Positions 3,920 to 60,013 of a stretch of 64,000 bases of DNA are shown in pieces. The DNA is from a virus (lineage: Duplodnaviria; Heunggongvirae; Uroviricota; Caudoviricetes). Position 1 is the first letter of the stretch. Every line of letters starts with the position of its first letter. Made by a program: the position numbers and the translations under genes. The notes under the pieces were generated by a model. The model worked only from the letters and a program-made list of their open reading frames with translations, was not told where the DNA came from and did no database searches. The DNA lies in IMG/VR virus record IMGVR_UViG_3300044638_009648; one strand, 5' to 3'.

Positions 3920-3920
3920 T

Positions 3921-32800: not shown

Positions 32801-33771
32801 GTGCACAAGGGGCAAGAGGTCCCCAAGGAGCAACAAATGGAGCTTTACAAGGTGCTACAGGAGCTCAAGGTTCCAGGGGACCACAGGGAGCTACAGGTTT
32901 TCAAGGTTTTCCTGGTTTTACTGGATTTCCGGGTGCCAATGGACCCCAGGGTGCTCAGGGAGCCCAGGGTGCTAGAGGTCCACAAGGAGCTCAAGGGGCA
33001 CGAGGTCCTCAAGGTGCACAGGGTGGCACGGGTCCTGTGGGTAACACTGGAGCAAGGGGTGCCCAAGGGGCAACGGGTAGTCAAGGATTCCAAGGAGCAC
33101 AAGGTTCTTTAATTCTTGGACCTCAAGGGGCACAGGGTGCCACAGGAGCTACCGGTGCTCAGGGACCCACTGGTCCAACCGCACCAAGTTGTGTTGCACA
33201 TTTTGTGTCTAACTGTTATAGTAGTGACGTGGATGCTTGTGGTGCGAAATCTCCAGGCGATTATCAAACGATTTATTCCCCTTGTGCTGTTTTGGCAAAC
33301 GGTTGCCGCCTTTGGGCAGACTCTTTATGTACAACTGGTTGCCCTTGTGACCCTGGGTTTGAATACATATCTGACGGTGTTAATGTTTGGTTAGTAGACG
33401 CTAACTGCGAATTAGCTAATGAGACACCCTGTACCTCTGTTTCTGATGGTAGATTAAAAACAAACGTGTTAACCATTGATAATTCTTTGGAATTATTGCT
33501 GAAGTTGGAACCTGTAGAATTTGATTGGAAAGAAATAACTCCGGAATACAAATATTTTGTGGAGAAAGGTATTACCCACTCTGTTGGGTTTATTGCTCAG
33601 CAAGTAAAAACTGTTGTTCCCGAAATTGTTCAAATGCGACCAAACGGATATTATACGGTTGATTACCCCCGAGTTAACGCTTTACTTGTTGAAGGTATAA
33701 AGGAACAACAAGTATTTATTGAGGACTTGGAAAAAGACATAACTGAACTTGAAAAATTATTTGAATTGTAA
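29890..33771 (+). CDS. Collagen-like fibre protein 1 (1293 aa) with Cys-rich module and C-terminal peptidase S74 intramolecular-chaperone domain
   Basis: About 940 residues of uninterrupted Gly-X-Y ([16 protein letters not shown]...). The C-terminus SDGRLKTNV ... [16 protein letters not shown] matches the endosialidase / tail-fibre auto-cleaving chaperone domain (S-D-x-R-L-K-x-N). Confidence 0.85.
30349..33180 (+). repeat. Gly-X-Y (GGN-GCN-CAR) triplet-repeat tract of fibre 1
   Basis: Direct 9-nt periodicity visible in the sequence. Confidence 0.9.
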
Positions 33772-36700
33772 TGGCTATTGATGTCATCATTTATCCCACT
33801 GGTGTGACTGGTAATGCAATCCCTCAAATTATTTTTGAGGATGCTGCTGGTGCCAAAATGGGTTTGATATATGAGGGGCCAAATTTAAGGTTTTCAGCTT
33901 CAACATCCATATCCTTGGTAACGGTAAGCCCAACGTCTGTTATTACTTCGGGTACTAGCGTTAGTAACGCCACAACTGGTATTTGGGCTGGGGAAACTTT
34001 GATGATTAACACCATTGGTGAATGGGTGGGACCACCCTTTAATATTCAAGGTTCTCAAGGAGCTCAAGGAGCAATAGGTTCCCAAGGAGCCCAAGGTGCT
34101 CAAGGAGCTCAAGGTGCTAAAGGAGCGCAAGGTGCCATAGGACCTCAAGGCGCCCAGGGTGCTCAAGGTGCTCAAGGCGCCCAAGGCGGTGTACAAGGTG
34201 CGCAAGGAGGCACTGGCGCTCAAGGAGCACAAGGTGCTCAAGGAGCACAAGGTGCTGTACAAGGAGCCCAAGGAGCTACCGGTGGCCAGGGAGCTCAGGG
34301 AGCACAGGGAGCACAGGGAGGTGTCCAAGGAGTCCAGGGTGCAACCGGAGCTCAAGGTGCCCAAGGAGCCGCTGGAACCCAAGGAGGAGTTCAAGGGGTG
34401 CAAGGTGCCACAGGAGGTCAAGGAGCTCAAGGAGCTACCGGTGCTCAAGGAGCAACTCAAGGTGCTATCGGTCCCCAAGGGGCACAAGGAGCACAAGGTG
34501 CCGCGGGAACTCAAGGTGGTGTCACTGGAGCTCAAGGAGCAAAAGGATTTCAAGGAGCACAAGGAGCACAAGGTGCCCAAGGTGGCGTCACTGGAGCCCA
34601 AGGAGCTCAAGGAGCGCAGGGGGCACAAGGTTCCCAGGGAGCTCAGGGTGCACCTCAAGGTGCTACAGGAGGTCAAGGTGCCCAAGGTGCACAAGGTGGA
34701 ATTGGTGCTCAGGGTGGAACTACTGGTGCCCAAGGTGCTCAAGGTGCTACAGGAGCTCAAGGTGCTACAGGAGCTCAAGGAGCAACTCAAGGTGTCCAGG
34801 GTGCCACAGGTTTTACAGGAGGTCAAGGTGTCCAAGGCGCACAGGGTGGTGTTCAAGGAGCCCAAGGTGCCATAGGAACACAAGGTGCTACTGGAGGTCA
34901 AGGAGCGCAAGGGTCTCCCACAGGAGGTCAGGGAGCTACAGGCTCACAGGGTGCACAAGGTTCTCAAGGGGCCCAAGGACTAGCAACAGGCTCTCAAGGG
35001 GCACAAGGTGCCCAAGGAGGACAAGGAGCTCAGGGAGCCCAAGGTGGCGTAACTGGAGCTCAAGGAGCTCAAGGAGCTCAAGGCGCTCAAGGTGCTATTG
35101 GTGCCCAGGGTGGTGTTGTCGGAGCCCAAGGTGCTATAGGAGCGCAAGGTGCTACGGGAGCTCAAGGTGCACAAGGTGGTGTTACAGGTGCTCAAGGAGC
35201 TACAGGCGGACAAGGAGCTCAAGGAGCAACCGGTGCTCAAGGATTACCTACAGGAATTCAAGGCACAACAGGCGCTCAGGGAGCTCAAGGTGCTACTGGT
35301 GCCCAAGGTTTACCCACAGGAGCCCAAGGTGCTCAAGGAGCCACTGGAGCTCAAGGTGCTACTGGTGCCCAAGGATTGCCCACGGGAAACCAAGGTGCTC
35401 AAGGTTCCCAAGGAGCACAAGGGGCTCAAGGTGCACAAGGTGGTGTAACAGGCGCTCAAGGAGCCCAAGGTGCCCAAGGTGCCACTGGTGCCCAAGGTGC
35501 ACAGGGTGGTGTCACTGGAGCCCAGGGCGGGACAGGTGGACAAGGAGCACAAGGCGCTCAAGGAGCCACAGGTTCTCCCCAAGGAGCTCAGGGAGTTCAA
35601 GGGGCTACTGGTGCCCAAGGACAAGTTGGTGCGCAAGGTTTACCCACAGGAGATACCGGAGGTCAAGGAATTCAAGGGTCACAAGGTGCCACTGGTGCCC
35701 AAGGCTCCGTACAAGGAGCCACAGGCTCTCAAGGTATTACAGGAGCACAAGGTGCCGTAGGAGCCCAAGGTGGTCCAACTGGAGCTCAAGGAGCCACAGG
35801 AGCACAAGGTGCACAAGGAGCCACAGGAGCTCAAGGAGGTATAACAGGTGCTCAAGGAGCACAAGGAGCCCAAGGAGCTCAAGGCGCAACGGGTGCTCAA
35901 GGAGGTCCAACAGGTTCTCAGGGTGCCCAGGGAGCTCAAGGCGCTCAGGGTGCCACAGGTGCAACTGGAGGTATTACTGGGGCCACAGGGGCACAAGGTG
36001 CTCAAGGACCCCAAGGTGCTCAGGGTGCCACAGGGGGCGTTACTGGAGCTACTGGAGCTACTGGTGCACAAGGACCACAAGGTGCTCAAGGTGCTGCTGG
36101 ATTACCCCAAGGCGCACAAGGACCACAAGGTGCTCAAGGTGCTCAAGGTGCTAAAGGAGCGCAAGGTGCCATAGAAGGTGCCGATGGTCTTCAAGGTTCT
36201 CAAGGACCCCAAGGAGCTCAAGGAGCTCAAGGAGGCGGAACAGGTGCTCAAGGCGCACAGGGACCCCAAGGAGCACAAGGAGCTACTGGTGCTCAAGGAG
36301 GACCTATGGGTGCCACAGGAGCACAAGGAGCACAAGGAGCACAAGGTGCCACAGGAGCGCAAGGTGCTGTCGTAGGTGCTCAAGGAAACACACCGTTTCC
36401 AGGCGCTACAGGAGGAACTGGAGCACAAGGATTGCCAACTGGAGGTCAAGGATTTCAAGGTAGCCAAGGATTTCAAGGAGCTACTGGTGCCCAAGGAGGT
36501 GCACAAGGAGCACAAGGAGCAATAGGAGCCCAAGGGGCTCAAGGAGCCACAGGGGCTCAGGGAGGCGTAACAGGTGCTCAAGGTGCACAAGGCGCACAAG
36601 GACCACAGGGTGCCACAGGTGCTCAAGGAGGCCCAACAGGAGCCCAGGGTTCTTTAGGTCCCCAGGGTGCACAAGGAGCACAAGGAGCGACAGGTGGTGT

Positions 36701-37358
36701 GACAGGTGCACAAGGTCCCCAAGGTGCACAGGGAGCACAAGGCCCCCAAGGGGAAAATAGTGCAACCCCTGGCTCACAAGGAGCTCAAGGTCAAGTAGGT
36801 GAATTACCTGGAGCACAAGGTGCATCCAATGCAACAACAGGAGCCCAGGGGGCTACACCTGGAGCAGGACCACAGGGAGCTCAGGGAGCACAAGGTTCTG
36901 AAGGTATAAAAGGACCCCAAGGTGCGCAAGGACCTAGTACAGGAGGGCCTCCAGGACCCCAAGGTGCCCAAGGAGCCCAAGGTGCACAAGGACCAACTGG
37001 ACCAACTGGACCACCCTCAGATTATAGATTAAAAACTAATGTTATCCCATTGACAAATGTTACAAGTAAAGTTATTGACATGCGAGGGGTCAAATTTGAA
37101 TGGCTAGAAAATATCCCCCAATTGGAACATATACCAGAAGCCCAACATTTTTATCTCAAGGGAAAAAGTATTGGATTTATTGCCCAAGAAATTGAAAAAA
37201 TATTTCCAGAATTAGTTTTGGAAGATAGATATGGGTATAAGAACATTCAGTACGATATTTTAGTTGCCATTGGCGTTGCTGCTGTAAAAGAAAATAATGA
37301 AAGAATTATTCTATTGAAAAATAAAATCAAACCCTTAAAATCATTTATAGGTGGCTGA
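33771..37358 (+). CDS. Collagen-like fibre protein 2 (1195 aa) with C-terminal S74 chaperone domain
   Basis: Gly-X-Y repeats with frequent one-residue register interruptions (GGVTG, GLPTG, GATQG). C-terminus [14 protein letters not shown] ... [16 protein letters not shown]. Confidence 0.85.
34048..37016 (+). repeat. Gly-X-Y triplet-repeat tract of fibre 2
   Basis: Seen directly in the sequence. Confidence 0.9.
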
Positions 37359-40300
37359 GAATATCATTATTTTTCCCGGAAGTGCTATGTTTGAATTTGT
37401 TGACTCTGGGTCAACAACTTCGAACTGGACTTTTATTGATTCAGGAACAGGATTGAGATTTCAGAATAATTCCTATGATTTATTAGACATTGTTGATAAT
37501 AGTATCAGCTTTAGAGTTAGATATGCCAATTTGTATGTAGATTCCATAACAAACAATTTTGGAAAAATTATTGATGGAACTGGATGGTTAGGAAACCAAA
37601 ACGCTGGGCCCCAAGGTGCACAAGGTGCTAAAGGACCAACTGGTGCAACTGGAGCAACTGGTGCGATAGGAAATATAGGTGCTCAAGGTGCTCAGGGGGC
37701 TACTGGTCCAACCGGAATCCAAGGGGCTACAGGAGCTCAAGGTGCTCAAGGATTTCAAGGAGCTCAAGGAGCTCAAGGTGCTAATGGAGCTCAAGGAGCT
37801 ACAGGACCACAAGGCGCTCAAGGGTTTCAAGGCGCTCAAGGGGCACAAGGAGCAATTGGTGCACAAGGTGCTCAAGGATTTCAAGGAGCTCAAGGAGCTC
37901 AAGGTGGTATTGGTTCCCAAGGAGCCCAGGGGGGTCAAGGATTTCAAGGAGCTCAAGGTGCTCAAGGCGCGGTAGGAGCTCAAGGAGCCCAAGGTGGTCA
38001 AGGATTTCAAGGTATAACCGGAAGCCAGGGAGCAGTTGGAGCACAAGGTGCTCAAGGAGGTCAAGGATTTCAAGGTGCCCAAGGAGCACAAGGTGGAACG
38101 GGAGCGCAAGGAGCGCAAGGAGCGCAAGGAGCTCAAGGTGTTTTGGGTATACAAGGGGCAGTCGGAGCCCAGGGCGCACAGGGAGGTCAAGGATTCCAAG
38201 GTGCTCAAGGAGCCCAAGGTGCAACTGGTGCCCAGGGAGCACAAGGAGGTCAAGGATTTCAAGGAAATATAGGTTCTCAAGGTTCAACTGGAGCACAGGG
38301 TGCTCAAGGTGGACAAGGATTTCAAGGAGCTCAAGGTGGTCAAGGATTTCAAGGAGCTCAAGGAGCCCAAGGAGCCCAAGGAGTCCAAGGTTCTGTGGGT
38401 GGACAAGGAGCGCAAGGAGCACAGGGTGCACAAGGAGGTCAAGGATTTCAGGGAGCAACTGGTGCCCAAGGAGCTATTGGTGCCCAGGGCGCACAGGGAG
38501 GTCAAGGATTTCAAGGAGCAACTGGTGCTCAAGGAGCTGTTGGTGCCCAAGGAGCACAGGGAGGTCAAGGAGCACAAGGAGTTTTAGGAACACAAGGTTC
38601 CGTTGGGGCACAAGGTGCCCAAGGTGCTCAGGGATTTCAAGGGGCTCAAGGAGTGCAAGGTGCTACAGGCGCCCAAGGAGCACAGGGAGGTCAGGGATTC
38701 CAAGGGGCACAAGGAGCGCAAGGTGCAGTAGGAGCACAAGGCGCACAGGGCGGTCAAGGATTCCAAGGTAATGTTGGTGCTCAGGGTGCGGTAGGAGCTC
38801 AAGGAGCTCAAGGTGGTCAAGGATTTCAAGGTGCTACTGGAGCCCAAGGTGCGGTAGGAGCTCAAGGTGCCCAAGGTGGTCAAGGATTTCAAGGAGCGCA
38901 AGGAGCAAATAGTGTAACTGGCGCACAAGGCGCACAGGGTGGTCAGGGTGCTCAAGGTATTCCTGGATTCCAAGGAGCCCAAGGCGCCACAGGAGCTCAA
39001 GGAGCTCAAGGATTCCAAGGCGCCCAAGGAGCTCAAGGAGCCGTCGGAGCACAAGGAGCACAAGGTGGACAAGGTTTCCAAGGTGGTACTGGAGCCCAAG
39101 GAGCAACAGGGGCACAAGGAGCCCAAGGTGGTCAAGGATTTCAAGGAGCCCAAGGGGCTCAAGGAGCAACAGGGGCACAAGGAGCCCAAGGTGGTCAAGG
39201 ATTTCAAGGAGCCCAAGGAGCCCAAGGAGCAACTGGAGCTCAAGGCGCTCAAGGAGGTCAAGGATTCCAAGGAGCCCAAGGAGCTACGGGGGCACAAGGT
39301 CCCGTTGGGGCACAAGGTGGTCAGGGAGCTCAAGGTGTGTTAGGTACTCAAGGTACTGTTGGTGCCCAGGGAGCACAAGGTGGTCAAGGATTTCAAGGTG
39401 TTGCTGGAAATACAGGTGAAGTTGGAGCACAGGGTGCTCAAGGCGCTCAAGGATTCCAGGGAGCCCAAGGAGCAGGCGGTGGTACTGGACCACAAGGTGC
39501 TCAAGGCGGTCAAGGATTCCAAGGAGCTCAAGGAGCTACAGGAGCTACAGGAGCGCAAGGGGCACAAGGTGGACAAGGTTTCCAGGGAGGTACTGGCTCA
39601 ACAGGTTCACAAGGTTCACAAGGAGCTCAGGGTGGACAAGGATTCCAAGGTCCTCCAGGTGATTCGGGAGGAACTGGCTCAGTTGGAGCTCAAGGTGGTC
39701 AAGGAGGGCAAGGACTTCCAGGAGTTACAGGACCACAAGGTTCACAAGGAGCTCAGGGTGGGCAAGGTTTTCAGGGAGCACAGGGGCCTATTGGTTCACA
39801 AGGTTCGCAAGGAGCTCAAGGTGGTCAAGGTTTTCAGGGTAATGTAGGTGCAACAGGCGCTCAAGGCGCTCAAGGTGCTCAAGGAGGTCAGGGATTCCAA
39901 GGAGCAACTGGAGCAGTGGGTCCACAAGGTGCGCAAGGTTCCCAGGGTGGACAAGGATTTCAAGGGGCTATAGGTTCCCAAGGGGCGACTGGAGCTCAAG
40001 GAGCCCAGGGAGCTCAAGGATTCCAGGGTCCACTGGGTGCTCAGGGTGCTACCGGGGTTCAAGGGGCTCAAGGTGGGCAAGGATTCCAAGGAGCACAGGG
40101 CACTCTAGGTCCGACAGGAGCTCAAGGAGCCACGGGTGCCCAAGGATTCCAAGGTGCCACCGGAGCCAAGGGTTTAGCGGGGTCAACCGGAGCACCAGGT
40201 TCACCAGGTCCTCAGGGAGCTCAAGGAGCTCAGGGAGCACAAGGATTCCAAGGTGCTCAAGGTGGCCAAGGATTTCAAGGTGCTGCTGGTGCAATTACTA

Positions 40301-40770
40301 TAGGAGCACAAGGCCAACAAGGAGCGCAAGGAGCCAAAGGAAGTGTAGACGGGGCTCAAGGTGCCTCTGGTGGTACAGCAACGGGTTTTCAGGGCGCGCA
40401 AGGAACAACAGGTCCAAGTGGAGCTCCAGGCCCAACGGGTCCCTCAGATTACAGATTGAAAAAAAATGTCGAAAATATTACTTCAGCACTAGACTTGGTT
40501 CAAAAACTTAGGGGTGTAAGATATAATTGGATACCTGGTATAAACAAAGATACTAGTGCTGTTGAAATTGGGTTTATTGCCCAAGAAATTGGTGAATATA
40601 TTCCTGAAGTTTTATTTGGTTCAGAAAATACACAATATGGTGTGAGATATAAGGAAGTTGTTGCTGTTACAATTGAAGCTATCAAAGAGCAAGAATCCAA
40701 AATCAGTGAACTTGAAAAGAGATTACAAGCAGTTTTGGATAAAGCACAACAAAAAGGTCTGATTATTTAA
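37351..40770 (+). CDS. Collagen-like fibre protein 3 (1139 aa) with C-terminal S74 chaperone domain
   Basis: Gly-X-Y repeats organised as a 7-triplet (21 aa / 63 nt) higher-order unit ...[13 protein letters not shown].... C-terminus [13 protein letters not shown] ... [16 protein letters not shown]. Confidence 0.85.
37603..40443 (+). repeat. Gly-X-Y triplet-repeat tract of fibre 3 (63-nt higher-order periodicity)
   Basis: Seen directly in the sequence. Confidence 0.9.
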
Positions 40771-42040: not shown

Positions 42041-43048
42041 ATGGATACAGATTATTTAAGATATCATAAAGAATGGGAATTAGGTCCTGATTTAAGCGAA
42101 TTGGGAAAACGTGCAAATGCTTTATTTCAATTTCTTATTGAAAGTGGCGAGCTGAAACAAGCAGATGATGATACCCAGGAAGAGATTAACAGATTACAAA
42201 AAAGAAAATTCGAGCTAGAAAAAGAAATCGAAAAATCTGATTCACCAACTCCAGAATTAGTATCGCAACTTGGTCAAATTGAACAAGAATTAGAAGCTTA
42301 TTATGAAGAATATTCAGATGTGTATGATATTGAACTGGATGATGAAACCTACTATGACCATGTTCATCTTTTCAATATCCCTAAAATAGAACAATCTTAT
42401 ATGGTTGGGGAAGATTTCGAAATGGAAGATGCGGCAACCGAATATTTGAAACAACTTTTTGATGATATTGGTTACAGCCATTTACCAGATTGGCTTCTCG
42501 AAAGTGCAATAAATGAAGATGATGTTGTATCTACCTTTAAAGAATCGTTTGAGCAATCGGTTCGTGAAGAACCCGAAAATTATTTAGATGATAGTGATAA
42601 AGAATTAACCAATTTACAAAAAAGATATTTTCAAAGTTACTCAAAACAACTAGAAAATCTAAATAAAAAAATTAGTGCTATCCAAGAAATTTTGAAGAAT
42701 ACTAAAGATGATGAAAAAAAAGAAATGCTCAAAAATTTTTCAGAAAGTCTTGATAGAGAGTTTGAATATTTAGATGAAAAGATAACAGAAATTACTGATA
42801 ATCCAGAGGGTGATTATAAACCAGAAGCTATAGAAGATTTGATTGAGTTAATGGTTGACCGTGCGAAAGATGATGTAATAGGTACTATGAAAGAATATGA
42901 TTTAGAAATGGAAAATTATATTGATAAAGATGAAGTTGTTCGTTTGGTTCTCAGAAATGATGGTTTAGAAACTATGTCAAGTTATGATGGTCAAGTGAAT
43001 GAAGAAATTGTTGATGGTACGGTTTTCTACATAATTCGTGTTGAATAA
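42041..43048 (+). CDS. Highly acidic hypothetical protein
   Basis: 335 aa, D/E rich, coiled-coil-like. Confidence 0.45.
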   Translation: MDTDYLRYHKEWELGPDLSELGKRANALFQFLIESGELKQADDDTQEEINRLQKRKFELEKEIEKSDSPTPELVSQLGQIEQELEAYYEEYSDVYDIELDDETYYDHVHLFNIPKIEQSYMVGEDFEMEDAATEYLKQLFDDIGYSHLPDWLLESAINEDDVVSTFKESFEQSVREEPENYLDDSDKELTNLQKRYFQSYSKQLENLNKKISAIQEILKNTKDDEKKEMLKNFSESLDREFEYLDEKITEITDNPEGDYKPEAIEDLIELMVDRAKDDVIGTMKEYDLEMENYIDKDEVVRLVLRNDGLETMSSYDGQVNEEIVDGTVFYIIRVE

Positions 43049-43075
43049 AAAAAAAATATATGCTATATTTTATTA

Positions 43076-43849
43076 ATGAGCAGAAAAAAACAACATTTTA
43101 AACTTAAACCAGATTGGATGTTTTCTCAACCAATCGATTTTGAGTTTAACAAGTATACACTTTTGGATTACATACAAAAATGCGAGACCAGTTTTGATAA
43201 TTTTAAAATTTATCCCGACTTCGTTGAAGTTTCTCTGCATTTGGCAAATTTGCAATCTTTGATGAAAGAAAGAACTCTATTACTTACTAATAAAAAATTT
43301 GAACACCCTGATGATGAAATTTTAGTAAAAGAATTGTACCCAAAAAGGATTACAGGTTTGACCGAAGATGAATTTGTTGAAATTGAAAAAACAATTATGT
43401 ATTCAGGAAATAGATTATTGGATACTTTCAACATTGGTAAATCAATTTGGTCAATAGTATATGAATCCACAGCAATCAATTTGAAAAAAAACAAAAAAAC
43501 TTTGAACTCTGGGAGAGGTTTTGTTTATTTGCCAATTAAAGATGATAAAAAAGTTTTAGTTTGGGAATTTTTTTTAAAAAAATATAAAGGTGATACAAAA
43601 ATGTATTTGAAACTCATCTGGGAAGGAGACCCACAAGGATTAAAGATTTTTGACATATGTTTAGAAAAAACAACTTGGTTGGACCAAGAAATTTATAAAT
43701 TACCAATGTTCGAAGTCATAAGTAATAATAAATTTCCATTGGAAGAAACTCTAATACCTATAATTAAACGAAAAGTTTTTGGGTACATATACCAAACGGT
43801 ACCTACCAAAGAAATTTTACATTTTGATAGTTCCAAATTAATTTCTTAA
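43076..43849 (+). CDS. Hypothetical protein
   Basis: 257-aa ORF. Confidence 0.45.
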   Translation: MSRKKQHFKLKPDWMFSQPIDFEFNKYTLLDYIQKCETSFDNFKIYPDFVEVSLHLANLQSLMKERTLLLTNKKFEHPDDEILVKELYPKRITGLTEDEFVEIEKTIMYSGNRLLDTFNIGKSIWSIVYESTAINLKKNKKTLNSGRGFVYLPIKDDKKVLVWEFFLKKYKGDTKMYLKLIWEGDPQGLKIFDICLEKTTWLDQEIYKLPMFEVISNNKFPLEETLIPIIKRKVFGYIYQTVPTKEILHFDSSKLIS

Positions 43850-43858
43850 ATTTGTTCC

Positions 43859-44056
43859 ATGGGATTCACAAAACGATTTATTAGCAAAGAAGAAACAAAA
43901 ACAAATCTTATTAACAAATCAATTTCATCTCTTTTCAAAAAAGGAGACGTTTTTGTTTTTTATGACGATTTGTCTCTTAGAGTTTATGAAAGTTACCTTT
44001 TAGGTTTGACAGACCAAGAATTATTTAATATGTTTGAAAAAGAAATAATAAATTAA
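43859..44056 (+). CDS. Small hypothetical protein
   Basis: 65-aa ORF. Confidence 0.3.
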   Translation: MGFTKRFISKEETKTNLINKSISSLFKKGDVFVFYDDLSLRVYESYLLGLTDQELFNMFEKEIIN

Positions 44057-44058
44057 TT

Positions 44059-44268
44059 ATGAAATGCATCAAAGCCCTCCGGGACAACAACAGTTATAAA
44101 AAGGATTACATTACCCGAGTTGAAAATAAAGAAGCAGATTTAAAAGTTTCAACTGGATATTGGACATTTATCCCTAAATTAGAATGGAAGATTGAAACTC
44201 GTGGTGAGACAATTTCTGCACCACCAAAAACTTCCACCAAAAAAAACAAAACAAAAAAACAGAAATGA
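44059..44268 (+). CDS. Small protein with basic KKNKTKKQK tail
   Basis: 69-aa ORF. Confidence 0.3.
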   Translation: MKCIKALRDNNSYKKDYITRVENKEADLKVSTGYWTFIPKLEWKIETRGETISAPPKTSTKKNKTKKQK

Positions 44269-44462
44269 TGGAAGTTGACCAGCAAACCCTGAAAATCTTG
44301 TTAGACAAATTGAATCGTCCAGTCCATATAAGTTACATTGCTAGATATATTTTGAAGCAGGAGGTTGATTTGACTATGAAAGTGATTAATCAATTGATTG
44401 CTCAAGGTCAAGTTGAAGAAAGTCAATCCGGAAAGGAGTATTATGTTCGTAAGTCAAGCTAG
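44265..44462 (+). CDS. Small hypothetical protein
   Basis: 65-aa ORF. Confidence 0.3.
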   Translation: MMEVDQQTLKILLDKLNRPVHISYIARYILKQEVDLTMKVINQLIAQGQVEESQSGKEYYVRKSS

Positions 44463-44657
44463 TATTTTCAATAAACATCATTGGGCTTTTTCTCTCAGAG
44501 TATTCAAATTACCAGTATTTGCATTTCAACTTTCAAAAGAATCTTTTTGGTTTAGAATTTTTGGTCATGGTTTGTCAGCAACATCTAAACCTTTGTTTAG
44601 TGTTAGAAACGGGTATAAAAAATATTTGAAACTGGGTAAATTTTATTTTGTATTTTT

Positions 44658-45824
44658 ATGAAGATTAAATTAGAATATGTATGGCTTGACGGTTATTCCC
44701 CGGAGCCTAATCTTAGAAGTAAGGTTAAAGTAATAGACACACCTCACCAGGAAGGTAGAATTACCTTGGATGATTGCCCTGAGTGGAGCTTCGATGGTTC
44801 GTCAACGCGACAAGCTGAAGGCAAGTTTTCTGACTGCATTTTGAAACCGGTGAGAGTTTATGAAAATATCCTTAACAAAGGGTATTTGAAATCATACTTT
44901 GTTTTGTGTGAGGTTATGAACCCTGATGGTACGCCTCACATTACCAACACCAGAGCAAATGTGGGTGAAGAAGAAGTAGGTCTTTGGTTCGGTTTTGAGC
45001 AAGAGTATACCATCTACCAAAACGGTAGACCTCTAGGATTTCCCAAGAACGGTTATCCCGAACCCCAGGGCAAATACTACTGCGGTGTGGGCAACGGACA
45101 GGTTCACGGACGAGAGTTTGTTGACAATCACATGGAGATGTGCATCAAAGCTGGAATTGAAATCACCGGAACCAACGCAGAAGTGTTGCTAGGTCAGTGG
45201 GAGTTCCAGGTTTTCAGCAAAGGAAAACTCAAAGCTGGTGATGACCTTTGGATGGCTCGTTATATTCTCCTGCAGATGAGCGAAGAGTACGGATTCAAAA
45301 TCGAATTCCACCCCAAACCAGTACAAGGTGATTGGAATGGTTCTGGACTTCACTGCAACTTCTCTAATGATAGAATGCGTGAAGAGGGGGGTGAAGAATA
45401 CTTCAATAACATCTTCCGTTCTTTTGATGTGCGTCACCAAGAACACATCCAAAACTATGGTTCGGAAAACAACCTTCGTTTAACTGGTAAACATGAAACG
45501 CAATCCATTGACACATTCAGTTGGGGTGTTTCGGACCGTGGTGCTTCAATCCGTGTTCCACTAGCTACTTCTAAGGAATGGAAAGGATATGTTGAAGACC
45601 GTCGTCCAGCATCGAATGGTGACCCTTATAAGATTGTTCGTGTAATTGCTGAGGCTTTGGACTTTGCTCTGCAGTTGGACAAAATAAATCACACAATAAA
45701 CAGCAAGATTGATGTTGAAAAAGCTAAGGAAATGCTTGCTTTTCTTGGTATTAACTACAATTTAGATAACCGTCATGATTACGACGAAGAAGAGCGTACC
45801 ATTGATAATATTGGAAAGGAATAA
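44658..45824 (+). CDS. glnII: Glutamine synthetase type II (eukaryote-like GSII)
   Basis: Near-colinear match to GSII over the whole length: FDGSSTRQAEGKFSD ... LCEV ... FEQEYT ... GFPKNGYPEPQGKYYCGVG ... GTNAEV ... QWEFQ ... RLTGKHETQSIDTFSWGVSDRGASIRVP ... KGYVEDRRPASNGDPY. Confidence 0.9.
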   Translation: MKIKLEYVWLDGYSPEPNLRSKVKVIDTPHQEGRITLDDCPEWSFDGSSTRQAEGKFSDCILKPVRVYENILNKGYLKSYFVLCEVMNPDGTPHITNTRANVGEEEVGLWFGFEQEYTIYQNGRPLGFPKNGYPEPQGKYYCGVGNGQVHGREFVDNHMEMCIKAGIEITGTNAEVLLGQWEFQVFSKGKLKAGDDLWMARYILLQMSEEYGFKIEFHPKPVQGDWNGSGLHCNFSNDRMREEGGEEYFNNIFRSFDVRHQEHIQNYGSENNLRLTGKHETQSIDTFSWGVSDRGASIRVPLATSKEWKGYVEDRRPASNGDPYKIVRVIAEALDFALQLDKINHTINSKIDVEKAKEMLAFLGINYNLDNRHDYDEEERTIDNIGKE

Positions 45825-46453
45825 TGAGTAAACCTTATATTCAACAACATTTAACCTATACAGAAGACGGTAGGTTGATGGACGAGACCGGACAAGCGGT
45901 CATGATGGAATGGGAACGTCCCATAATGGCACAAGCCGCTGAGGTTATCTGCAGAAAAGGTGGTAGAGTATTGAACGTAGGTTTTGGTATGGGTATTATC
46001 GATACCGAAATTGAGAAGTATGAAATTCAAGAACATTGGATTATTGAACCTCACTTGGATGTGTTTACCAAGATGATGAATGATGGTTGGCATTTGAAAC
46101 CCCATGTGAGAATCCTGCATGGTGACTGGCAGTGGTTTATGAAATACCTTCCAGAGTTTGATGGGGTTTACATTGACACCTGGAACGAGGAGATTTATGA
46201 TTTTCTTCGCAACTCACCAGCATTTTTGAAAAAAGATGGTATTCTGTCGTTCTTCAACAATCCAAGAGCTGATGAGAAAGGTCTGCACATGACCCAGGAG
46301 CACTATGATATTTTAAACCCAATTTTCAATATTGAGTTTGAAACAATTCAACTTGAAGATATCGATGGACCTGAAATGCAAACTGCTGATGGTAGATACT
46401 ATTGGCATCCCGATTGGAAAACCTATTACTGTCCCATTTTAACTTTGAAATAA
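45824..46453 (+). CDS. Class-I SAM-dependent-fold protein with spermidine-synthase-like (aminopropyltransferase) architecture
   Basis: VLNVGFGMGIIDTEIEKYEIQEHWIIEPHLDV ... ILHGDWQWF ... FDGVYIDTWNE parallels vLiiGgGDGGvlREv ... EID ... gDg ... FDVIIvDSSDP. The Asp of the GGGDGG motif is absent. Confidence 0.45.
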   Translation: MSKPYIQQHLTYTEDGRLMDETGQAVMMEWERPIMAQAAEVICRKGGRVLNVGFGMGIIDTEIEKYEIQEHWIIEPHLDVFTKMMNDGWHLKPHVRILHGDWQWFMKYLPEFDGVYIDTWNEEIYDFLRNSPAFLKKDGILSFFNNPRADEKGLHMTQEHYDILNPIFNIEFETIQLEDIDGPEMQTADGRYYWHPDWKTYYCPILTLK

Positions 46454-46454: not shown

Positions 46455-46754
46455 ATGTCTGAAAACAAAGGAAATTTTGAACTGAAAACTATTTTAAGGT
46501 CAGATGTTAAGAAAATGTCTGAAAACCAACAAAATTATGAATATGTAAATCACCCTAACCATTATGGAGGAGCATCGAATGTTTATGAAGTCATCAAGGT
46601 TATTGAAGCCCTTGAAATGGATTTTCATCTCGGCAACACTTTTAAGTACATTGCTAGAGCAGGAAAAAAAGAAACTGATAGAGAAATTCAAGATTTAAAG
46701 AAAGCTCTCTGGTATCTTCAACGAAAGATTCAACTTTTAGAATCGAAACAATGA
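46455..46754 (+). CDS. DUF3310-family phage protein (putative)
   Basis: VNHPNHYGG ... VIKVIEAL ... GNTFKYIARAGKK ... DLKKALWYL resembles the DUF3310 consensus. Confidence 0.45.
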   Translation: MSENKGNFELKTILRSDVKKMSENQQNYEYVNHPNHYGGASNVYEVIKVIEALEMDFHLGNTFKYIARAGKKETDREIQDLKKALWYLQRKIQLLESKQ

Positions 46755-48452: not shown

Positions 48453-48467
48453 TATCTTTGTAAGATG
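48453..48467 (+). promoter_or_regulatory. TATCTTTG-N4-ATG promoter/start arrangement
   Basis: Motif at 48453-48460, ATG at 48465 (RNA ligase). Confidence 0.5.
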
Positions 48468-49538
48468 AATATTGAAACACTCAATCGGTATCACGAAGAT
48501 GGATTGCTGTATAAACAAACCCATCCCACACTCCCTTTGACTATATGGAACTATAATGAAAAAGTCCAGTACGAAGGGTTGTGGGATGAGGTGACTCTGC
48601 AATGTCGAGGTTTAATTACTGAAGATACTACCGGTACGATTTTGGTTCGCCCTTTCAATAAGTTCTTTAATTACGAGGAGGTTGTTGGAAAGGGTATGAT
48701 ACCTACAAAAGGTGACTATGTGTACATCCAAGAAAAGATGGATGGGTCCTTGGGTATTCTTTTCAACTACAAAGATGAATGGATTATGGCAACTCGTGGT
48801 TCATTTACCTCTGAACAAGCCATAAAAGGTCTTGAGATTGTTAAATCTAAGTATTTCTTGGTTTCATGGGCTAAGGAATATGCTTACTTGGTAGAAATCA
48901 TCTACCCTGAAAACCGTATCGTTGTTGACTACGGTGAGGAAAAGGTAACTTTTTTATCTGTGGTTTTGAATGAGAGTTGGAAATGGAAACCAACGGACGA
49001 CACTGAACTACACTGGACTACCGCAAAGATGATTCTACATGCTAACGGTGTTAAAGATAATTTGGTAAAAACCGAACAACACTTCAACTTCTCTGATGAG
49101 TTATACAAGTCGTTGAAAGAAAAGAACGAAACCAACAAAGAAGGTTTTGTTCTTAGATTCCAACCTGGTAACTTCAGGATGAAAATTAAGTTTGAAGAAT
49201 ATGTTCGTCTCCATAAAGTTATGACCAACCTGTCGACAACTGCGGTTTGGGAGGTATTATCCAACGGTGGTAATATTGATGACTTGTTGAAGGATGTGCC
49301 TGATGAGTTTTATTCCAAAATCAATGACTATGAGAAATCTTTGATTATTCAGTTTAACAACTTGGAAGAGGAATACCAAAACCACTTTGATTCTATCAGA
49401 AGATTGGGTAATAGAAAGTTATTTGCTCAGTGTGCGGTCATGTTTCAACACCCATCAATATTGTTTGGTATGTTGGATGGTAAAAACATTTCTTCTATAA
49501 TTTGGAAGATTATCAAGCCGGAATTTCGTAAGTTGTAA
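48465..49538 (+). CDS. ATP-dependent RNA ligase, Rnl1-like
   Basis: Nucleotidyltransferase motif I VYIQEKMDGSLGILF (compare T4 Rnl1 KEDGSL); 357 aa. Confidence 0.62.
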   Translation: MNIETLNRYHEDGLLYKQTHPTLPLTIWNYNEKVQYEGLWDEVTLQCRGLITEDTTGTILVRPFNKFFNYEEVVGKGMIPTKGDYVYIQEKMDGSLGILFNYKDEWIMATRGSFTSEQAIKGLEIVKSKYFLVSWAKEYAYLVEIIYPENRIVVDYGEEKVTFLSVVLNESWKWKPTDDTELHWTTAKMILHANGVKDNLVKTEQHFNFSDELYKSLKEKNETNKEGFVLRFQPGNFRMKIKFEEYVRLHKVMTNLSTTAVWEVLSNGGNIDDLLKDVPDEFYSKINDYEKSLIIQFNNLEEEYQNHFDSIRRLGNRKLFAQCAVMFQHPSILFGMLDGKNISSIIWKIIKPEFRKL

Positions 49539-49547
49539 AACAATTCG

Positions 49548-49562
49548 TATCTTTGTTGTATG
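49548..49562 (+). promoter_or_regulatory. TATCTTTG-N4-ATG promoter/start arrangement
   Basis: Motif at 49548-49555, ATG at 49560 (phosphoesterase). Confidence 0.5.
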
Positions 49563-50207
49563 AAAATCGTATTAGAAAAAGGACAGGGTCTGTTTTTCAC
49601 ATCAGACACTCACTACAACCACGGGAACATTTGTCGTGCCACCACCAAATGGGTGGGTGCTGACAACCTGACCCGTGATTATAAGTCCTTGGACCATATG
49701 AACGATACGTTGGTGAATCGAATCAATGAGATGGTGGGTGAGAACGATATCTTGGTTCACTTGGGTGACTGGTCGTTCGGTGGATTTGAATCTATTGCTG
49801 AGTTCCGTAGTCGGATTCTTTGTAAGAACATTCACCTGACTTTCGGTAACCACGACCACCACATCCGTAGAAACAAGGGTGATATCCAAGACATCTTTTC
49901 ATCTTGTCAGGACTACCTTCACTTGGATATTCGCAAGCCCATGGGCAAAGAGGTTTTGAAATATTCGATGGTGTGTATGCACTATCCGATTGCCTCATGG
50001 GACGGAATGAATGACGGTGTTGTTCACCTTCACGGACACGTTCACCTTCCACCCAACCTTCGTATCAACGAGGGTAGAGCCATGGATGTTGGTGTTGATG
50101 GAAACGACCTTTACCCAATTTCTTTTGAGGAAATCCGAAACATTATGAAAGACCGTCCTTGCCGAAAATTGACTTTACCTAAAGACCACCACGAAAAAAG
50201 ATTGTAA
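49560..50207 (+). CDS. Calcineurin-like metallophosphoesterase (candidate 3'-phosphatase / 2',3'-cyclic phosphodiesterase)
   Basis: DTHYNHG, HLGDWSFGG, FGNHDHH, HLHGHVH motifs. Confidence 0.7.
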   Translation: MKIVLEKGQGLFFTSDTHYNHGNICRATTKWVGADNLTRDYKSLDHMNDTLVNRINEMVGENDILVHLGDWSFGGFESIAEFRSRILCKNIHLTFGNHDHHIRRNKGDIQDIFSSCQDYLHLDIRKPMGKEVLKYSMVCMHYPIASWDGMNDGVVHLHGHVHLPPNLRINEGRAMDVGVDGNDLYPISFEEIRNIMKDRPCRKLTLPKDHHEKRL

Positions 50208-50211
50208 AATT

Positions 50212-50631
50212 ATGATACCAAAAATATTAACGTTAGTAAGGGGATTGCCAGGAAGTGGTAAATCAACATTTGCAAATTTTATTTGGAATGAGTATGCAAT
50301 ATGTGAAGCTGATAAGTTTTTTTATGATTCGGAAGGACATTATGTATTTGATGCAAGTAAATTAAGGGAAGCTCATAAGTGGTGTAGAGATGAAGTTGAA
50401 ACCCGTATGAAGGATAATGAAGTAAACCCACAATACTATCCTGAAATTGTAGTATCCAATACATTTACTCAAGAGTGGGAAATGGAAGAGTATTTTAAAT
50501 TAGCTGAGAAGTATGGATATATGGTATTCACTATTGTAGTGGAAAACCGACATGGTGGAGTAAATCAACATGGAGTACCTGAAGAAAAGTTAGAGCAAAT
50601 GAAAAATAGGTTTGAAATCAAAATAATTTAA
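50212..50631 (+). CDS. Polynucleotide 5'-kinase (T4 Pnk kinase-domain-like P-loop kinase)
   Basis: MIPKILTLVRGLPGSGKSTFANF parallels T4 Pnk [22 protein letters not shown]. Confidence 0.7.
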   Translation: MIPKILTLVRGLPGSGKSTFANFIWNEYAICEADKFFYDSEGHYVFDASKLREAHKWCRDEVETRMKDNEVNPQYYPEIVVSNTFTQEWEMEEYFKLAEKYGYMVFTIVVENRHGGVNQHGVPEEKLEQMKNRFEIKII

Positions 50632-54911: not shown

Positions 54912-54985
54912 TGCGGATTAGAGTTCTGGTGAACTCGGAAGTCTCATAAGCTTTCTTCAGGGTTGTTCGATTCAGCCATCCGCTA
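54912..54985 (+). tRNA. Candidate tRNA-Met(CAU)
   Basis: Hand-folded cloverleaf: acceptor TGCGGAT / ATCCGCT (1:72 mismatch); D stem GAGT / ACTC; anticodon stem GAAGT / GCTTT (two G-U pairs) with loop CTCATAA (U33, CAU anticodon); T stem GGTTG / CAGCC with T-loop TTCGATT. The variable loop is 6 nt, one longer than usual. Confidence 0.4.
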
Positions 54986-55860
54986 CAAAAAAAAGTTTGA
55001 TAAGGTACTTGACAAAATCAAAACCGTTATTATACTTTAACAACAAGTCAGGGAAACTTGACGAGTTCTTTGAATTACAAAATAGGCGGTTTAGCGTCTT
55101 TAGATAACCCCAGCGATGGGACTAAAAGGGATGAAGGGTTTAGCGACCTTGGTAATCTCGCAGGACTTCGGTCTTGACAACTAAACAAAGTACCTACGGT
55201 TGAAACCCTGACGGCAAGTGCTGAGGGGATGATGCCACACCGATTTCGTGGAGAGTCGGGGTTGCGGTGGAGACACCAATAGGAAAAGGTACAGGTGACG
55301 GTTTGAGACATCCCGCCGGGTGTTGTAAAGCTGGGTACCAGTCCGAAGGGTTACCACGGGGTTAAACCTACCGTAGTCCTGAGTGACCGTGAACTGGCGG
55401 GTTCACAGAGAGGTGTGAAGCATTTTGTTCCCAAAAGGAGCGGAACTTCTCCCGAAGCACATCTTTCATTCTTCCACAAAGCTACATATCAATGAATGAT
55501 ATTCTAAGATACAAGCAAAAGTCTTCGGGCGTTGATACTGAAAGGTGTCTAATCCTTCAGGTCATCGGACCAATGAAGGCATCAATCGGACCGCAAGTCC
55601 CTTGGTGTTAATTGTGAAACTACTCGTGGGACGGCCATCCCTTAGTGAGCTCGCAAGGCTCAAGAGATAGGAGTATCAGTTGAGTTGGTGTCAACGAAAA
55701 GAGTGGTAGACTCAAATTACCGACACTGGTTGGATACAACAGGCAACTGTTGTGGACCGAGTGGGGAAAGGATAATCCCACTAAAGACTGACCATCTAAG
55801 CTCGTAGTCTCAGAGCATTAGCCGAACCCCCTTCCGTAAGGTTGGGGGTTTTTTTATTTT
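54986..55860 (+). ncRNA. Candidate large structured non-coding RNA (unclassified)
   Basis: About 0.9 kb with no plus-strand ORF. It is markedly GC-enriched relative to flanks (hand count of one 128-nt stretch is about 57% G+C). Many local hairpins, and it ends in a strong intrinsic terminator. Confidence 0.3.
55825..55857 (+). terminator. Intrinsic terminator closing the GC-rich RNA block
   Basis: AACCCCC-ttccgtaagg-TTGGGGG followed by TTTTTTT. Confidence 0.7.
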
Positions 55861-57612: not shown

Positions 57613-58860
57613 ATGAATACAAAGAAACCATCAGCTATTGTATATGGTTGGCACACATCAGGGGAAACAGTATTAATATCAGACATTTATTGGGAAGAAG
57701 GTCTTCATGATGAAGTTAACATATATTCCTTACCATACACAAATAATGTAATTGAAGATTATACCAAATTCAAACCTGATTTGATAATTAGTTTCGGTGA
57801 AGAAATTGAAATTCCTCATTTTCATTTAACAAGATTTCACATTCATTATGATGAACTCATTCCGGATATTATCCTTGCTAATGTAATTGTTTGTCAATCT
57901 GTTTTTAGAAGCTCAACTAACTTCAGACCACGGTTTTCAATATTTACACCAACCTATAAAACTGGTGAAAGAATTTTTAGAACATACGAAGGTTTGAAAA
58001 ACCAATTATACAATAATTGGGAATGGGTTGTTGTTGACGATTCTCCTGATAATGAAACTTGGGAAAAATTAAGGGAAATTGCATCGAAAGATTATAGAGT
58101 TAAACTTCATAGAATATATCCTTTAACTGGTGGAAATGTTGGCCTAGCTAAAAATAGGGCTGCGCATCTTTGTGACGGGGATTGGATTGTTGAACTTGAC
58201 CACGATGACACATTGACAAGTGAATGCTTATCTACAGCAAATGATGCCATTGCCGCTTACCCCGACGCTGGTTTTATTTATACGGATTGTGCGGAAATGT
58301 ATGATGATGAAGAACCTAAATATTACGACCACGATTGGACAGGTAATTGGTATGCTAGGGAAGATAATTTTTTTGATTTCGGTTATGCTGGGCACACCTG
58401 GGTTGAAGTCGATGGTGAAACTAGACTGGCACACCATTACCCAGATATTAATCCATTAACAATTAGATTTAACATTTCTATGCCTAACCATGCTAAAATG
58501 TGGGATAGAAAGGTTTATCTGGAAATGGGGGGGCACAATAAATTCATCCCTGTTGCCGATGATTTGGAGATTAATATTCGCACTTTTTTGAATACTAAAA
58601 TGATTCACATAAAAAGGGTATTGTATTTGCAGTTCAATAACAGAAACAGTACCGTGGATAATAATTCAACAGATATTAATCGTCGTGCCAGATTAATCAA
58701 AGACCATTATGACAAAGCGGTTCATGACAGAATCGAAGAGTTAGGTTTTGAGGATTGGAATTGGGATAGTGAAAAACTTCACTCCCAAAAATTTCAAAAC
58801 TCCGGTGGTCCTCGCCGTTATTTTGAGGATGAACAAGTAATGAATTACATTTATGAATAA
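57613..58860 (+). CDS. Family-2 (GT-A fold) glycosyltransferase
   Basis: FSIFTPTYKTGERIFRTYEGLKNQLYNNWEWVVVDDSPDNET, the canonical GT2 N-terminus with DxD. Confidence 0.7.
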   Translation: MNTKKPSAIVYGWHTSGETVLISDIYWEEGLHDEVNIYSLPYTNNVIEDYTKFKPDLIISFGEEIEIPHFHLTRFHIHYDELIPDIILANVIVCQSVFRSSTNFRPRFSIFTPTYKTGERIFRTYEGLKNQLYNNWEWVVVDDSPDNETWEKLREIASKDYRVKLHRIYPLTGGNVGLAKNRAAHLCDGDWIVELDHDDTLTSECLSTANDAIAAYPDAGFIYTDCAEMYDDEEPKYYDHDWTGNWYAREDNFFDFGYAGHTWVEVDGETRLAHHYPDINPLTIRFNISMPNHAKMWDRKVYLEMGGHNKFIPVADDLEINIRTFLNTKMIHIKRVLYLQFNNRNSTVDNNSTDINRRARLIKDHYDKAVHDRIEELGFEDWNWDSEKLHSQKFQNSGGPRRYFEDEQVMNYIYE

Positions 58861-60013
58861 CAAAAAAGCAAAAATTGTACTTAATGCAATGGTGGCCAAT
58901 GAGGCCAGAACCATTACCAGAATGTTGGAATCTGTATATCAATACATTGATTATTGGGTTATACAGGACAATGGTTCTAAAGATGGTACACAGGACATAA
59001 TTAGAAACTTCTTTGAGGAAAAAGGAATACCAGGTTTTTTATATGAAACCGAATGGTTGTTTCCTGGATTCAACAGAGACCATGCTTTACAAGAATGTTT
59101 GAAAGCTGACCATGGTTGTGATTGGATTTTGCGAATGGATGCAGATGAAAGATTGGAAGTGGACTCTGATTTTGATTGGTCAATATTGGAAGATACAAAT
59201 ATTGATTCTTTTAATATCATTGTCAGAAGTTTCAACACTAGGTATTTCAGGACCTGGATGTGGAATGCCCGCAGACCTTGGTTTTTTCAACATGACAAAC
59301 GGCATGAAACAATTCATCTGCCAGAGGTTGGTGAATCATTCCAACGAATTACACTACCTGAAAGTTTTAGACACATTGTTACCAATGATGGACAAACTTG
59401 GTTTGCACCCAGGAAGTTTCTAAGAGATGCCCTGGAACTTGAAATTGATAAAGTTGTGGGTAACACCATACTTGAAGACCATTATCATTTATGGTATGTC
59501 GGGAAAAGTTATGCTGATTGTTACGGAAAACCTGATGAATTAGCTTTTGGAAAAGACCACTCTGATGAATATGCTCGTAGGGCAATTTATTACTTTAAAC
59601 ATTTTCTTAGGGTATCTCATAATTATTGGGAAACCAAAAAACCTGCAAGACATGATGAAATGGCTTACATGACTTTCATTCTTATTGCTGCAGCAATGGA
59701 TTTTCGTGGAGAAACTGAAGAAGCGTTGGGTATGTTTCCACAAGCCAAAGCATTTGCTCCTGAACGAAATGAACATTTGTTGTATTGGGCTATAATGTTG
59801 GAAAAACATGGAAAACATGATAAAGCATTAGAATTGGTTGATATGATGATGGTACCGGAAAAGAAAAATCCATTCCCTAATTTATGTTTTCTGATTGAAA
59901 ATCGTGCTTATACTGACACCTCAAATTTTTTGGTGGAGTGGAAAGAACACTTATTAAAAAGAATCAATGAACCTATTTTAAGTAACGAAGGTGTTGTCTT
60001 TGATTTCGAATAA
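58853..60013 (+). CDS. Glycosyltransferase family 2-like protein
   Basis: KIVLNAMVANEARTITRMLESV ... WVIQDNGSKDGT. Confidence 0.55.
   Translation: MNNKKAKIVLNAMVANEARTITRMLESVYQYIDYWVIQDNGSKDGTQDIIRNFFEEKGIPGFLYETEWLFPGFNRDHALQECLKADHGCDWILRMDADERLEVDSDFDWSILEDTNIDSFNIIVRSFNTRYFRTWMWNARRPWFFQHDKRHETIHLPEVGESFQRITLPESFRHIVTNDGQTWFAPRKFLRDALELEIDKVVGNTILEDHYHLWYVGKSYADCYGKPDELAFGKDHSDEYARRAIYYFKHFLRVSHNYWETKKPARHDEMAYMTFILIAAAMDFRGETEEALGMFPQAKAFAPERNEHLLYWAIMLEKHGKHDKALELVDMMMVPEKKNPFPNLCFLIENRAYTDTSNFLVEWKEHLLKRINEPILSNEGVVFDFE

Follow-up and report, generated by a model that had tools for sequence, protein, structure and literature searches.

A type II glutamine synthetase and an RMT2-type methyltransferase in a variable slot of a large phage genome

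Two adjacent genes on the plus strand of IMG/VR virus record IMGVR_UViG_3300044638_009648 (Caudoviricetes) are the subject of this analysis: a type II glutamine synthetase (GS, GlnII-type) of 388 aa at 44658..45824 and a methyltransferase (MT, also called ORF2 here) of 209 aa at 45824..46453. Both open reading frames (ORFs) are present in the 64,000-nucleotide stretch that was analysed, referred to as the window. The favored explanation, to which we assign a probability of about 0.7, is that these are two independent cargo genes in a variable, recombination-prone slot, and not the two halves of a pathway. The slot lies between conserved small early-region genes and a gene for a DUF3310 protein. 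During infection, the phage GS would convert glutamate, ammonium and ATP to glutamine outside the control of the host's own GS, and the extra glutamine would provide the amide nitrogen needed to make nucleotides, NAD, amino sugars and asparagine, meeting the demand of replicating a genome of ~300 kb. Glutamine supply is the most likely role of the GS, as the enzyme is intact, has long been kept in a phage clade and has been interpreted in the literature as the product of an auxiliary metabolic gene (AMG). The MT would methylate a guanidino nitrogen, more likely that of a protein arginine than that of guanidinoacetate.

Both genes are already known from viral surveys, and the GS is known from the matching phage lineage. 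New here are the re-annotation of ORF2 as an RMT2-type enzyme, the separability of the pair, and a monophyletic clade of phage type II GS (GSII) with a C-terminal tail. The main yield is a corrected annotation, which places the neighbor of the GS outside polyamine metabolism and DNA-modification pathways.

Two genes in one variable slot

The stop codon of GS and the start codon of MT overlap by one base (TAATG), as had been noticed when the sequence was first read. Tight packing is general in this region, however: a small ORF overlaps the start of GS, and the DUF3310 gene starts one base past the MT stop, so that close packing is not peculiar to the GS/MT pair. Synteny mapping gives a constant order of five upstream genes (335, 257, 65, 69 and 65 aa; 42041..44462, +), then GS and/or MT, and then the DUF3310 gene (46455..46754, +; Pfam DUF3310, E 1.7e-15), which follows GS and/or MT in syntenic loci. 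The upstream border genes are syntenic in all three states of the slot. Both genes are present in the window and in loci L011, L025, L032 and L063; MT alone is present in L027, L028, L039, L041, L046, L047, L052 and L058; and GS alone is present in L096, L141, L145, L152 and others.

How does one state turn into another? The flanks of L025 and L027 are 95–98% identical, and L027 has MT and no GS. All that L027 retains of GS is 15 nt from its start, in decayed form (ATAAAGATTAAATTA vs ATGAAAATTAAATTA), joined to the start of MT. The near-identical flanks and the remnant show a clean deletion of GS in which MT was kept. Between the window and L002, the synonymous divergence (dS) drops from 0.56 in GS to 0.06 in the adjacent MT, an abrupt change that points to a recombination breakpoint at the GS/MT junction or close to it. 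Elsewhere the two genes are found far apart, by 158 kb in the 635-kb phage LR745206 and by tens of kilobases in IMG/VR contig 3300033182_000991, and more distant MT copies neighbor chaperonins and a clamp loader. Three slot states, a GS deletion, a breakpoint and distant copies together argue that the genes are separable and independent.

The same conclusion is reached by counting. Eighty viral MT loci and 80 viral GS loci were taken and each was searched for the partner gene, 71 of the former and 78 of the latter being informative. Counted as adjacency, GS lies directly upstream of MT in 25 of the 71 MT loci (no neighboring GS in 46), and MT immediately follows GS in 10 of the 78 GS loci (no neighboring MT in 68). 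The share of MT loci with an adjacent GS depends on the identity of the MT to that of the window: 24/26 at ≥70%, 1/21 at 55–70% and 0/24 below 55%. Pairing is not conserved across divergent relatives; it is lineage-specific. Neighbor clustering of ~130 loci revealed no recurrent metabolic partner of either gene. The recurrent neighbors were the DUF3310 protein, a DNA methyltransferase, thioredoxin/glutaredoxin-like proteins, chaperonins and a clamp loader, all of which reflect structural synteny only. (In some relatives, the MT is fused in frame to DUF3310, a domain labelled "nucleotide kinase" by PHROGs; an example is the 298-aa metagenomic protein P0056. Most simply, the fusion reflects adjacency.)

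The original prediction had offered the pair as an auxiliary nitrogen or polyamine metabolism module or, alternatively, as a two-step pathway in which GS ligates glutamate to an amine that the second enzyme makes or modifies, so that a polyamine would receive a gamma-glutamyl group or a base in DNA would become hypermodified. The TAATG packing and the retention of the pair in 24/26 of the loci with the closest MT would fit such a pathway, and amine glutamylation by enzymes of the GS fold is known (PMC5403932). It is, however, difficult to reconcile with GS-only and MT-only loci and with the clean deletion of GS beside a retained MT. Nor were polyamine or DNA-hypermodification genes found among the scanned ORFs of the window, which spans 64 kb of a ~300-kb genome. 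When the nature of the two enzymes is also considered (see below), the pathway becomes highly improbable. As for the metabolic module, its nitrogen half is reasonable for GS alone, but the polyamine half is not supported, since ORF2 belongs to the family of guanidinoacetate N-methyltransferase (GAMT) and RMT2.

The glutamine synthetase

The GS matches the NCBIfam GlnII model at E 1.8e-117, with 392.2 bits against an equivalog cut-off of 500, and exceeds both Pfam cut-offs (Gln-synt_N, 34.5 bits with a cut-off of 33.4; Gln-synt_C, 60.4 bits with a cut-off of 24). It matches solved GSII structures at E 1e-87 to 1e-101, including those from yeast (3fky, E 4e-101) and Streptomyces (4bax, E 7e-98). 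Residues 2–338 pair with residues 3–338 of 4bax, and the pairing is similar for 3fky, 4is4 and 2d3a. Colinearity with GSII had been proposed for the whole 388-aa ORF; it holds for residues 1–337, but residues ~338–388 form an extension that belongs to the phage clade.

Is the enzyme likely to be functional? With human GS as the numbering reference (its sequence is identical to PDB 8dnu_A), 23 of 23 metal, ATP, glutamate and ammonium-pocket residues are kept in the window GS and in 119/119 close homologs, bearing out the claim that the GSII landmarks are conserved. These include E134, E136, E196, E203, H253, E338, R299, R319, R324 and R340, and take in the six metal ligands and the glutamate- and ATP-binding arginines; N248/G249, S257, R262, Y336 and W130 are also conserved. 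The ammonium pocket of the human enzyme, consisting of D63, S66, Y162 and the E305 flap, corresponds to D46, S49, Y141 and E280 in the window, and these are invariant in 120/120 sequences. In the gamma-glutamylpolyamine synthetases GlnA3 and PauA7, by contrast, this pocket is altered, with Asp50 replaced by Gly, Tyr179 by Ala and Glu327 by Trp (PMC5403932). None of these substitutions is found in the window GS, where D46, Y141 and E280 are kept, and the gamma-glutamylputrescine synthetase model (NCBIfam GGputSyn) scores it at 31.4 bits against a cut-off of 650. The ratio of nonsynonymous to synonymous divergence (dN/dS) is 0.03–0.07, indicating strong purifying selection. The conserved pocket, the low GGputSyn score and the low dN/dS argue against a pseudoenzyme and do not suggest an acceptor other than ammonia. 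The GS is predicted to be a catalytically intact, ammonia-using type II enzyme, in keeping with its first description as apparently functional, and both the pocket and the GGputSyn score count against the two-step pathway.

The C-terminal extension (residues 338–388; 45669..45821, +) is specific to the phage clade and consists of a helix followed by an acidic tail. Alignments to PDB entries end at about residue 337. In the AlphaFold2 model of the GS monomer, which is of moderate quality overall with a predicted local distance difference test (pLDDT) value of 71, the last core helix is prolonged to about residue 348, after which pLDDT drops to 43–53. The tail has a median length of 38 aa in the viral GSII clade, with a range from 20 to ~100 aa and a maximum of about 97 aa, versus 6 aa in cellular GlnII. 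Within it, an "AE.L...H.M" segment is semi-conserved and the acidic part is variable; most cellular GlnII have no such tail. Such a tail could be taken to mean that the protein moonlights in a non-catalytic role, for example by sequestering a host regulator, and the score below the GlnII equivalog cut-off might be read in the same way. Against this stand the invariance of the catalytic residues across the clade and the strong purifying selection, and the tail itself is variable in sequence and length and modelled with low confidence. A moonlighting GS is therefore considered very unlikely.

The phage GS was originally described as eukaryote-like. This is correct insofar as it is a type II enzyme, but the protein is closer to bacterial and archaeal GlnII, with 53–60% identity to Bacteroidota GlnII and 48–60% to other prokaryotic GlnII, compared to 44–50% to human, yeast and plant GS. 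GlnII is common in Bacteroidota (Flavobacteriaceae, Saprospiraceae, Chitinophagales and Cyclobacteriaceae), Planctomycetota, Verrucomicrobiota and Marine Group II (MGII) archaea. In neighbor-joining distance trees, which were made without an outgroup and are hence unrooted, the IMG/VR viral GSII, including that of the window, form one clade in 200/200 bootstraps. A second split, also at 200/200, separates eukaryotes, Streptomyces and two huge-phage copies from the viral clade together with the GlnII of Bacteroidota, the Planctomycetota–Verrucomicrobiota–Chlamydiota (PVC) group and MGII. By these trees, the phage GS groups with bacterial GlnII and not with eukaryotic GS. The possibility that the nearest cellular GlnII copies are mis-binned phage DNA was considered for L166–L170 and L192 and rejected, since these loci have zero matches to the slot genes of the window and, on inspection of their ORFs, chromosomal-looking neighbors.

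Whether GSII is an unusual cargo for a phage, as was first thought, depends on where one looks. Among deposited phage genomes, a GSII-like match was found in only four huge-phage assemblies, at 44–58% identity, but within the lineage of the window the gene is widespread, a GSII relative being encoded by at least 541 IMG/VR contigs. The huge-phage assemblies LR756501, LR756502 and LR745206 (L246–L248; 635–735 kb) encode GSII of differing origins: the 735-kb assembly has a Bacteroidota-type GlnII, and the 642- and 635-kb copies fall on the eukaryote/Streptomyces side. Their placement implies that large phages would have acquired GSII several times independently. The large, old monophyletic clade to which the window GS belongs suggests that Bacteroidota phages have been under prolonged selection for glutamine synthesis of their own control.

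The methyltransferase

ORF2 had zero matches in Pfam (in a library without PF27704), NCBIfam and PHROG, and its only sequence matches in the PDB are GAMTs (E 1.4e-18, residues 20–146). PF27704 (GuanidinoAc_N-MeTrfase) is annotated on P0001, a protein identical to ORF2, on 119 homologs and on genes called in relatives, and the JGI name for ORF2 homologs is "protein arginine N-methyltransferase 2". The AlphaFold2 model is of high confidence (pLDDT 94; predicted template modelling score, 0.91), and its best fold match is GAMT 1xcj, with a template modelling (TM) score of 0.77, ~31% identity and E 6.5e-15. Generic class-I methyltransferases, among them spermidine and spermine synthases (14–19% identity), follow only at a clear distance. 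Of the two architectures first proposed for ORF2, the class-I methyltransferase stands, but the likeness to spermidine synthase does not, the only PDB sequence relatives being GAMTs.

The residues expected for guanidino chemistry are present. E31 and D118 of ORF2 align to Glu45 and Asp134 of rat GAMT and are invariant in 61 homologs. Komoto and colleagues are reported to have assigned, in 2004, a guanidino-binding role to Glu45. For Asp134, a catalytic role has been described (PMC12471008). The FDGVYID motif that had been read in the position of the aminopropyltransferase signature is real, but it is not a mark of that family: its Asp118 is the residue that aligns with the catalytic Asp134. 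The glycine loop of ORF2 reads VGFGMG, and motif alignment places a near-invariant Met56 at the position of the Asp in GGGDGG, whose absence had been suspected from the start. In aminopropyltransferases, this Asp excludes the carboxylate of S-adenosylmethionine (SAM), thereby selecting decarboxylated SAM. That ORF2 is not an aminopropyltransferase removes further ground from the two-step pathway.

GAMT is, however, not the closest relative. A profile made from 61 ORF2 homologs and searched against 1.84 billion representatives recovers ~20 clusters of phage-type 200-aa proteins, followed by proteins of 340–500 aa that score 160–197 bits over profile positions 3–207. The latter are eukaryotic and have N-terminal ankyrin repeats (P0258, P0262, P0274), which are absent from the 209-aa phage protein; their UniRef and NCBI names are Arginine N-methyltransferase 2 or RMT2-domain protein, from fungi, plants and algae. 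One such ankyrin plus RMT2 protein is 41% identical to ORF2 over residues 5–209 (E 1e-46), whereas GAMT scores only 87 bits under the same profile, over positions 18–150. The family is broad, with 214 IMG/VR contigs, and with 2241 clusters at 50% identity that match the profile. For the MT, dN/dS is about 0.04–0.06 in most comparisons, as expected under purifying selection. On sequence and fold, ORF2 is classed as a stand-alone RMT2-type catalytic domain of the GAMT/RMT2 superfamily, a SAM-dependent guanidino N-methyltransferase domain (PF27704) without the ankyrin N-terminus, and it is predicted to methylate a guanidino nitrogen.

What is the substrate? Since the similarity to RMT2 is full-length and that to GAMT is limited to the SAM-binding and catalytic core, a protein arginine side chain appears more likely than guanidinoacetate. 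If ORF2 were a true GAMT, it would make creatine, presumably as an energy buffer in the infected cell. Its only solved relatives are indeed GAMTs, the equivalents of Glu45 and Asp134 are conserved (for the role of the latter, see PMC12471008), and the closest viral structure is that of a UniProt entry named [quoted passage not shown]. Moreover, in a global-ocean AMG survey, viral "GAMT, K00542" was the most virus-enriched AMG and was interpreted as creatine synthesis (PMC11360552). On the other hand, the likeness to GAMT is confined to the N-terminal two-thirds of the protein at 87 bits, compared to end-to-end matches of 160–197 bits for RMT2, and no amidinotransferase to make guanidinoacetate was found among the scanned window ORFs. 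No creatine/phosphocreatine system is known from Bacteroidota. A creatine-making ORF2 is accordingly judged improbable, and for the family of ORF2 the creatine-synthesis reading of the viral GAMT in the survey appears doubtful. Some of the viral "GAMT/creatine synthesis" AMGs may instead be RMT2-type arginine methyltransferase domains; if so, the question shifts from creatine to methylation of proteins or other guanidino compounds in infected bacteria. Some large phage contigs have two paralogous PF27704 methyltransferases a few kilobases apart (L013/L014, at 3454..4038 and 6001..6684; L062, at ~2965 and 6001). The shorter paralog, of ~194 aa, may match the UniProt entry named as a putative GAMT.

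In yeast, Rmt2 monomethylates the delta-nitrogen of Arg67 in Rpl12 (PMC10265986). It is conceivable, though the odds are against so specific a proposal, that ORF2 serves the phage during infection as a protein arginine (delta-N) methyltransferase, with a protein of the host or of the phage itself as its target. By analogy with the yeast enzyme acting on Rpl12, uL11 would be a possible target; uL11 sits where the stringent response is triggered. If this were true, a type IV arginine methyltransferase would be found at work in a bacterial cell for the first time, and phages would have a new route to retuning host translation or stress signaling.

A protein-directed MT also raises the question of whether the two genes could cooperate without forming a pathway. 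The MT might, for example, tune glutamine synthesis by methylating an arginine residue in GS, whether that of the phage or that of the host, or in a nitrogen regulator. The two genes share one slot, they are adjacent and tightly packed in one subclade and at the distant locus L063, and RMT2-type enzymes do target protein arginine (PMC10265986). But most MT loci lack a neighboring GS (46/71) and most GS loci lack a neighboring MT (68/78), and a recombination breakpoint lies between the genes, so such cooperation is unlikely.

Several observations nevertheless weigh against the reading of GS and MT as independent cargo genes with the roles outlined above. The pair is packed and retained in the subclade of the window (24/26 loci with MT identity ≥70%), and the distant locus L063 is also paired, so that there may be a functional benefit of having both genes. 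The counts describe adjacency only, and a partner may lie elsewhere in the genome, as in the two documented cases of distant copies. No glutamine-consuming amidotransferase that could anchor a role in glutamine supply was found among the scanned window ORFs. The GS bears a C-terminal tail that most cellular GlnII lack, and its score remains under the GlnII equivalog cut-off; the latter reflects a divergent phage clade and speaks against strict use of the equivalog name, not against the assignment of enzyme type. Finally, the choice between a protein and a small-molecule substrate for the MT is made by homology only.

The source phage and comparison with known systems

The ORF that overlaps the start of GS (44443..44661, +) encodes a basic and hydrophobic protein of 72 aa when read from its ATG; its stop overlaps the GS start (ATGA), and it is nested in an 87-aa ORF that starts with TTG (44398..44661). 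A 72-aa gene is called at the equivalent place in L011, a syntenic 315-kb metagenomic contig, and by our own reading of the DNA, L025 and L027 encode a similar protein, which is thus kept even in L027, where GS is deleted. A PHROG search of the small slot genes, including this one, gave zero matches, the upstream border genes (42041..44462) had no informative Pfam or PHROG matches, and a megablast search of the region against deposited phages likewise gave zero matches.

The window is AT-rich (30–39% GC), except for three consecutive giant collagen-like ORFs at 50–59% GC (29890..40770; 1293, 1195 and 1139 aa). These consist of triplet repeats, the last one ending in a non-repeat C-terminal domain, and probably encode fiber or surface proteins. 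Two adjacent proteins of 473 and 619 aa (22781..26096) have C-terminal leucine-rich repeats, which are unusual for a phage, and share a common PHROG to which no function is assigned. An RNA-repair-type module at 48465..50631, comprising a T4 Rnl1-like RNA ligase (357 aa), a metallophosphoesterase (215 aa) and an AAA_33/polynucleotide-kinase-like protein (139 aa), probably counters host tRNA-cleaving defenses. At 57613..61103, two family-2 glycosyltransferases are followed by a UDP-galactopyranose mutase (GLF, E 5e-76), which suggests that the phage makes galactofuranose-containing glycans. Also present are a sigma-70 family factor (12976..13776), a full-length DnaJ with J, zinc-finger and C-terminal domains (21465..22388), one tRNA-Met (54912..54986), and a Y-family (ImpB/UmuC-like) DNA polymerase (62012..63214). 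The remaining gene content includes an SprB-repeat protein, a DnaG-type primase, an SbcC-like nuclease with a metallophosphoesterase, and an amidase.

What kind of virus is this? GSII, RMT2 and collagen-like proteins are each reminiscent of eukaryotes and might suggest a eukaryotic giant virus. This origin was rejected because the window and its relatives have SprB, Por_Secre_tail and CHU_C domains, a DnaG-type primase, a sigma-70 factor and an SbcCD-like nuclease, as well as a T4-type RNA ligase and dense, same-strand small genes; the CHU_C and Por_Secre_tail domains are found in the 315-kb contig (L011/L012) and its relatives. Moraphages are jumbo freshwater phages of up to 307 kb with predicted Flavobacteriia hosts, which have DnaJ/DnaK and a sigma factor, and 9 of the 25 described moraphage genomes encode a glutamine synthetase (PMC12619734). 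The SprB repeats, DnaJ, sigma factor and primase of the window are consistent with this lineage. We infer from gene content that the source is a large, moraphage-like Bacteroidota phage.

How, then, do the two genes compare with known systems? Spermidine synthase and other aminopropyltransferases share the class-I Rossmann methyltransferase-like fold of ORF2, but only as second-tier matches (TM ~0.65); identity is 14–19%, there is no Pfam or NCBIfam match, and ORF2 has Met56 in place of the GGGDGG Asp. GAMT (1xcj, 3orh) is closer, with the same fold, a GFGM SAM loop and the conserved Glu45 and Asp134, but sequence similarity to ORF2 does not extend past about residue 150, the C-terminal third being different. 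The catalytic domain of eukaryotic RMT2, a type IV protein arginine N-methyltransferase, aligns end to end with ORF2 at 37–41% identity, the two sharing the N-terminal VMM.WE, the SAM loop, the DT(W/Y/F) catalytic motif and the C-terminal YW..Y.P. Unlike RMT2, however, ORF2 has no ankyrin-repeat N-terminal region and its host is bacterial; delta-N-methylation is known for the yeast enzyme.

On the side of GS, the enzymes GlnA3, PauA7 and PuuA have the GS fold and the ATP-dependent gamma-glutamyl ligase chemistry of the phage enzyme, but by NCBIfam scores they are GSI-like and not GSII, and the pocket residues that they have replaced are kept in the phage. Bacterial GlnII (Streptomyces GSII 4bax and the enzymes of Flavobacteriaceae, Saprospiraceae, Planctomycetota and Verrucomicrobiota) has the same two-domain architecture, is colinear over residues 1–337 of the phage GS and is identical to it in active-site and ammonium-pocket residues, the overall identity to Bacteroidota/PVC GlnII being 52–60%; the phage GS differs in forming its own clade (200/200), in its C-terminal extension and in its sub-cut-off score. 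The nearest phage counterparts are the moraphage GS (Perez-Hernandez et al., Arch Virol 2025, PMC12619734) and the glnA genes of jumbo and large phages (PMC13037316, PMC13172472), from large aquatic phages with predicted Bacteroidota hosts. In those papers, GS is treated at the level of annotation, without type II identity, active-site analysis, slot or neighboring MT. What the window has in common with them is DnaJ, a sigma factor and a primase, a GS that occurs in a subset of the genomes, and a phylogenetic affinity of prokaryote type.

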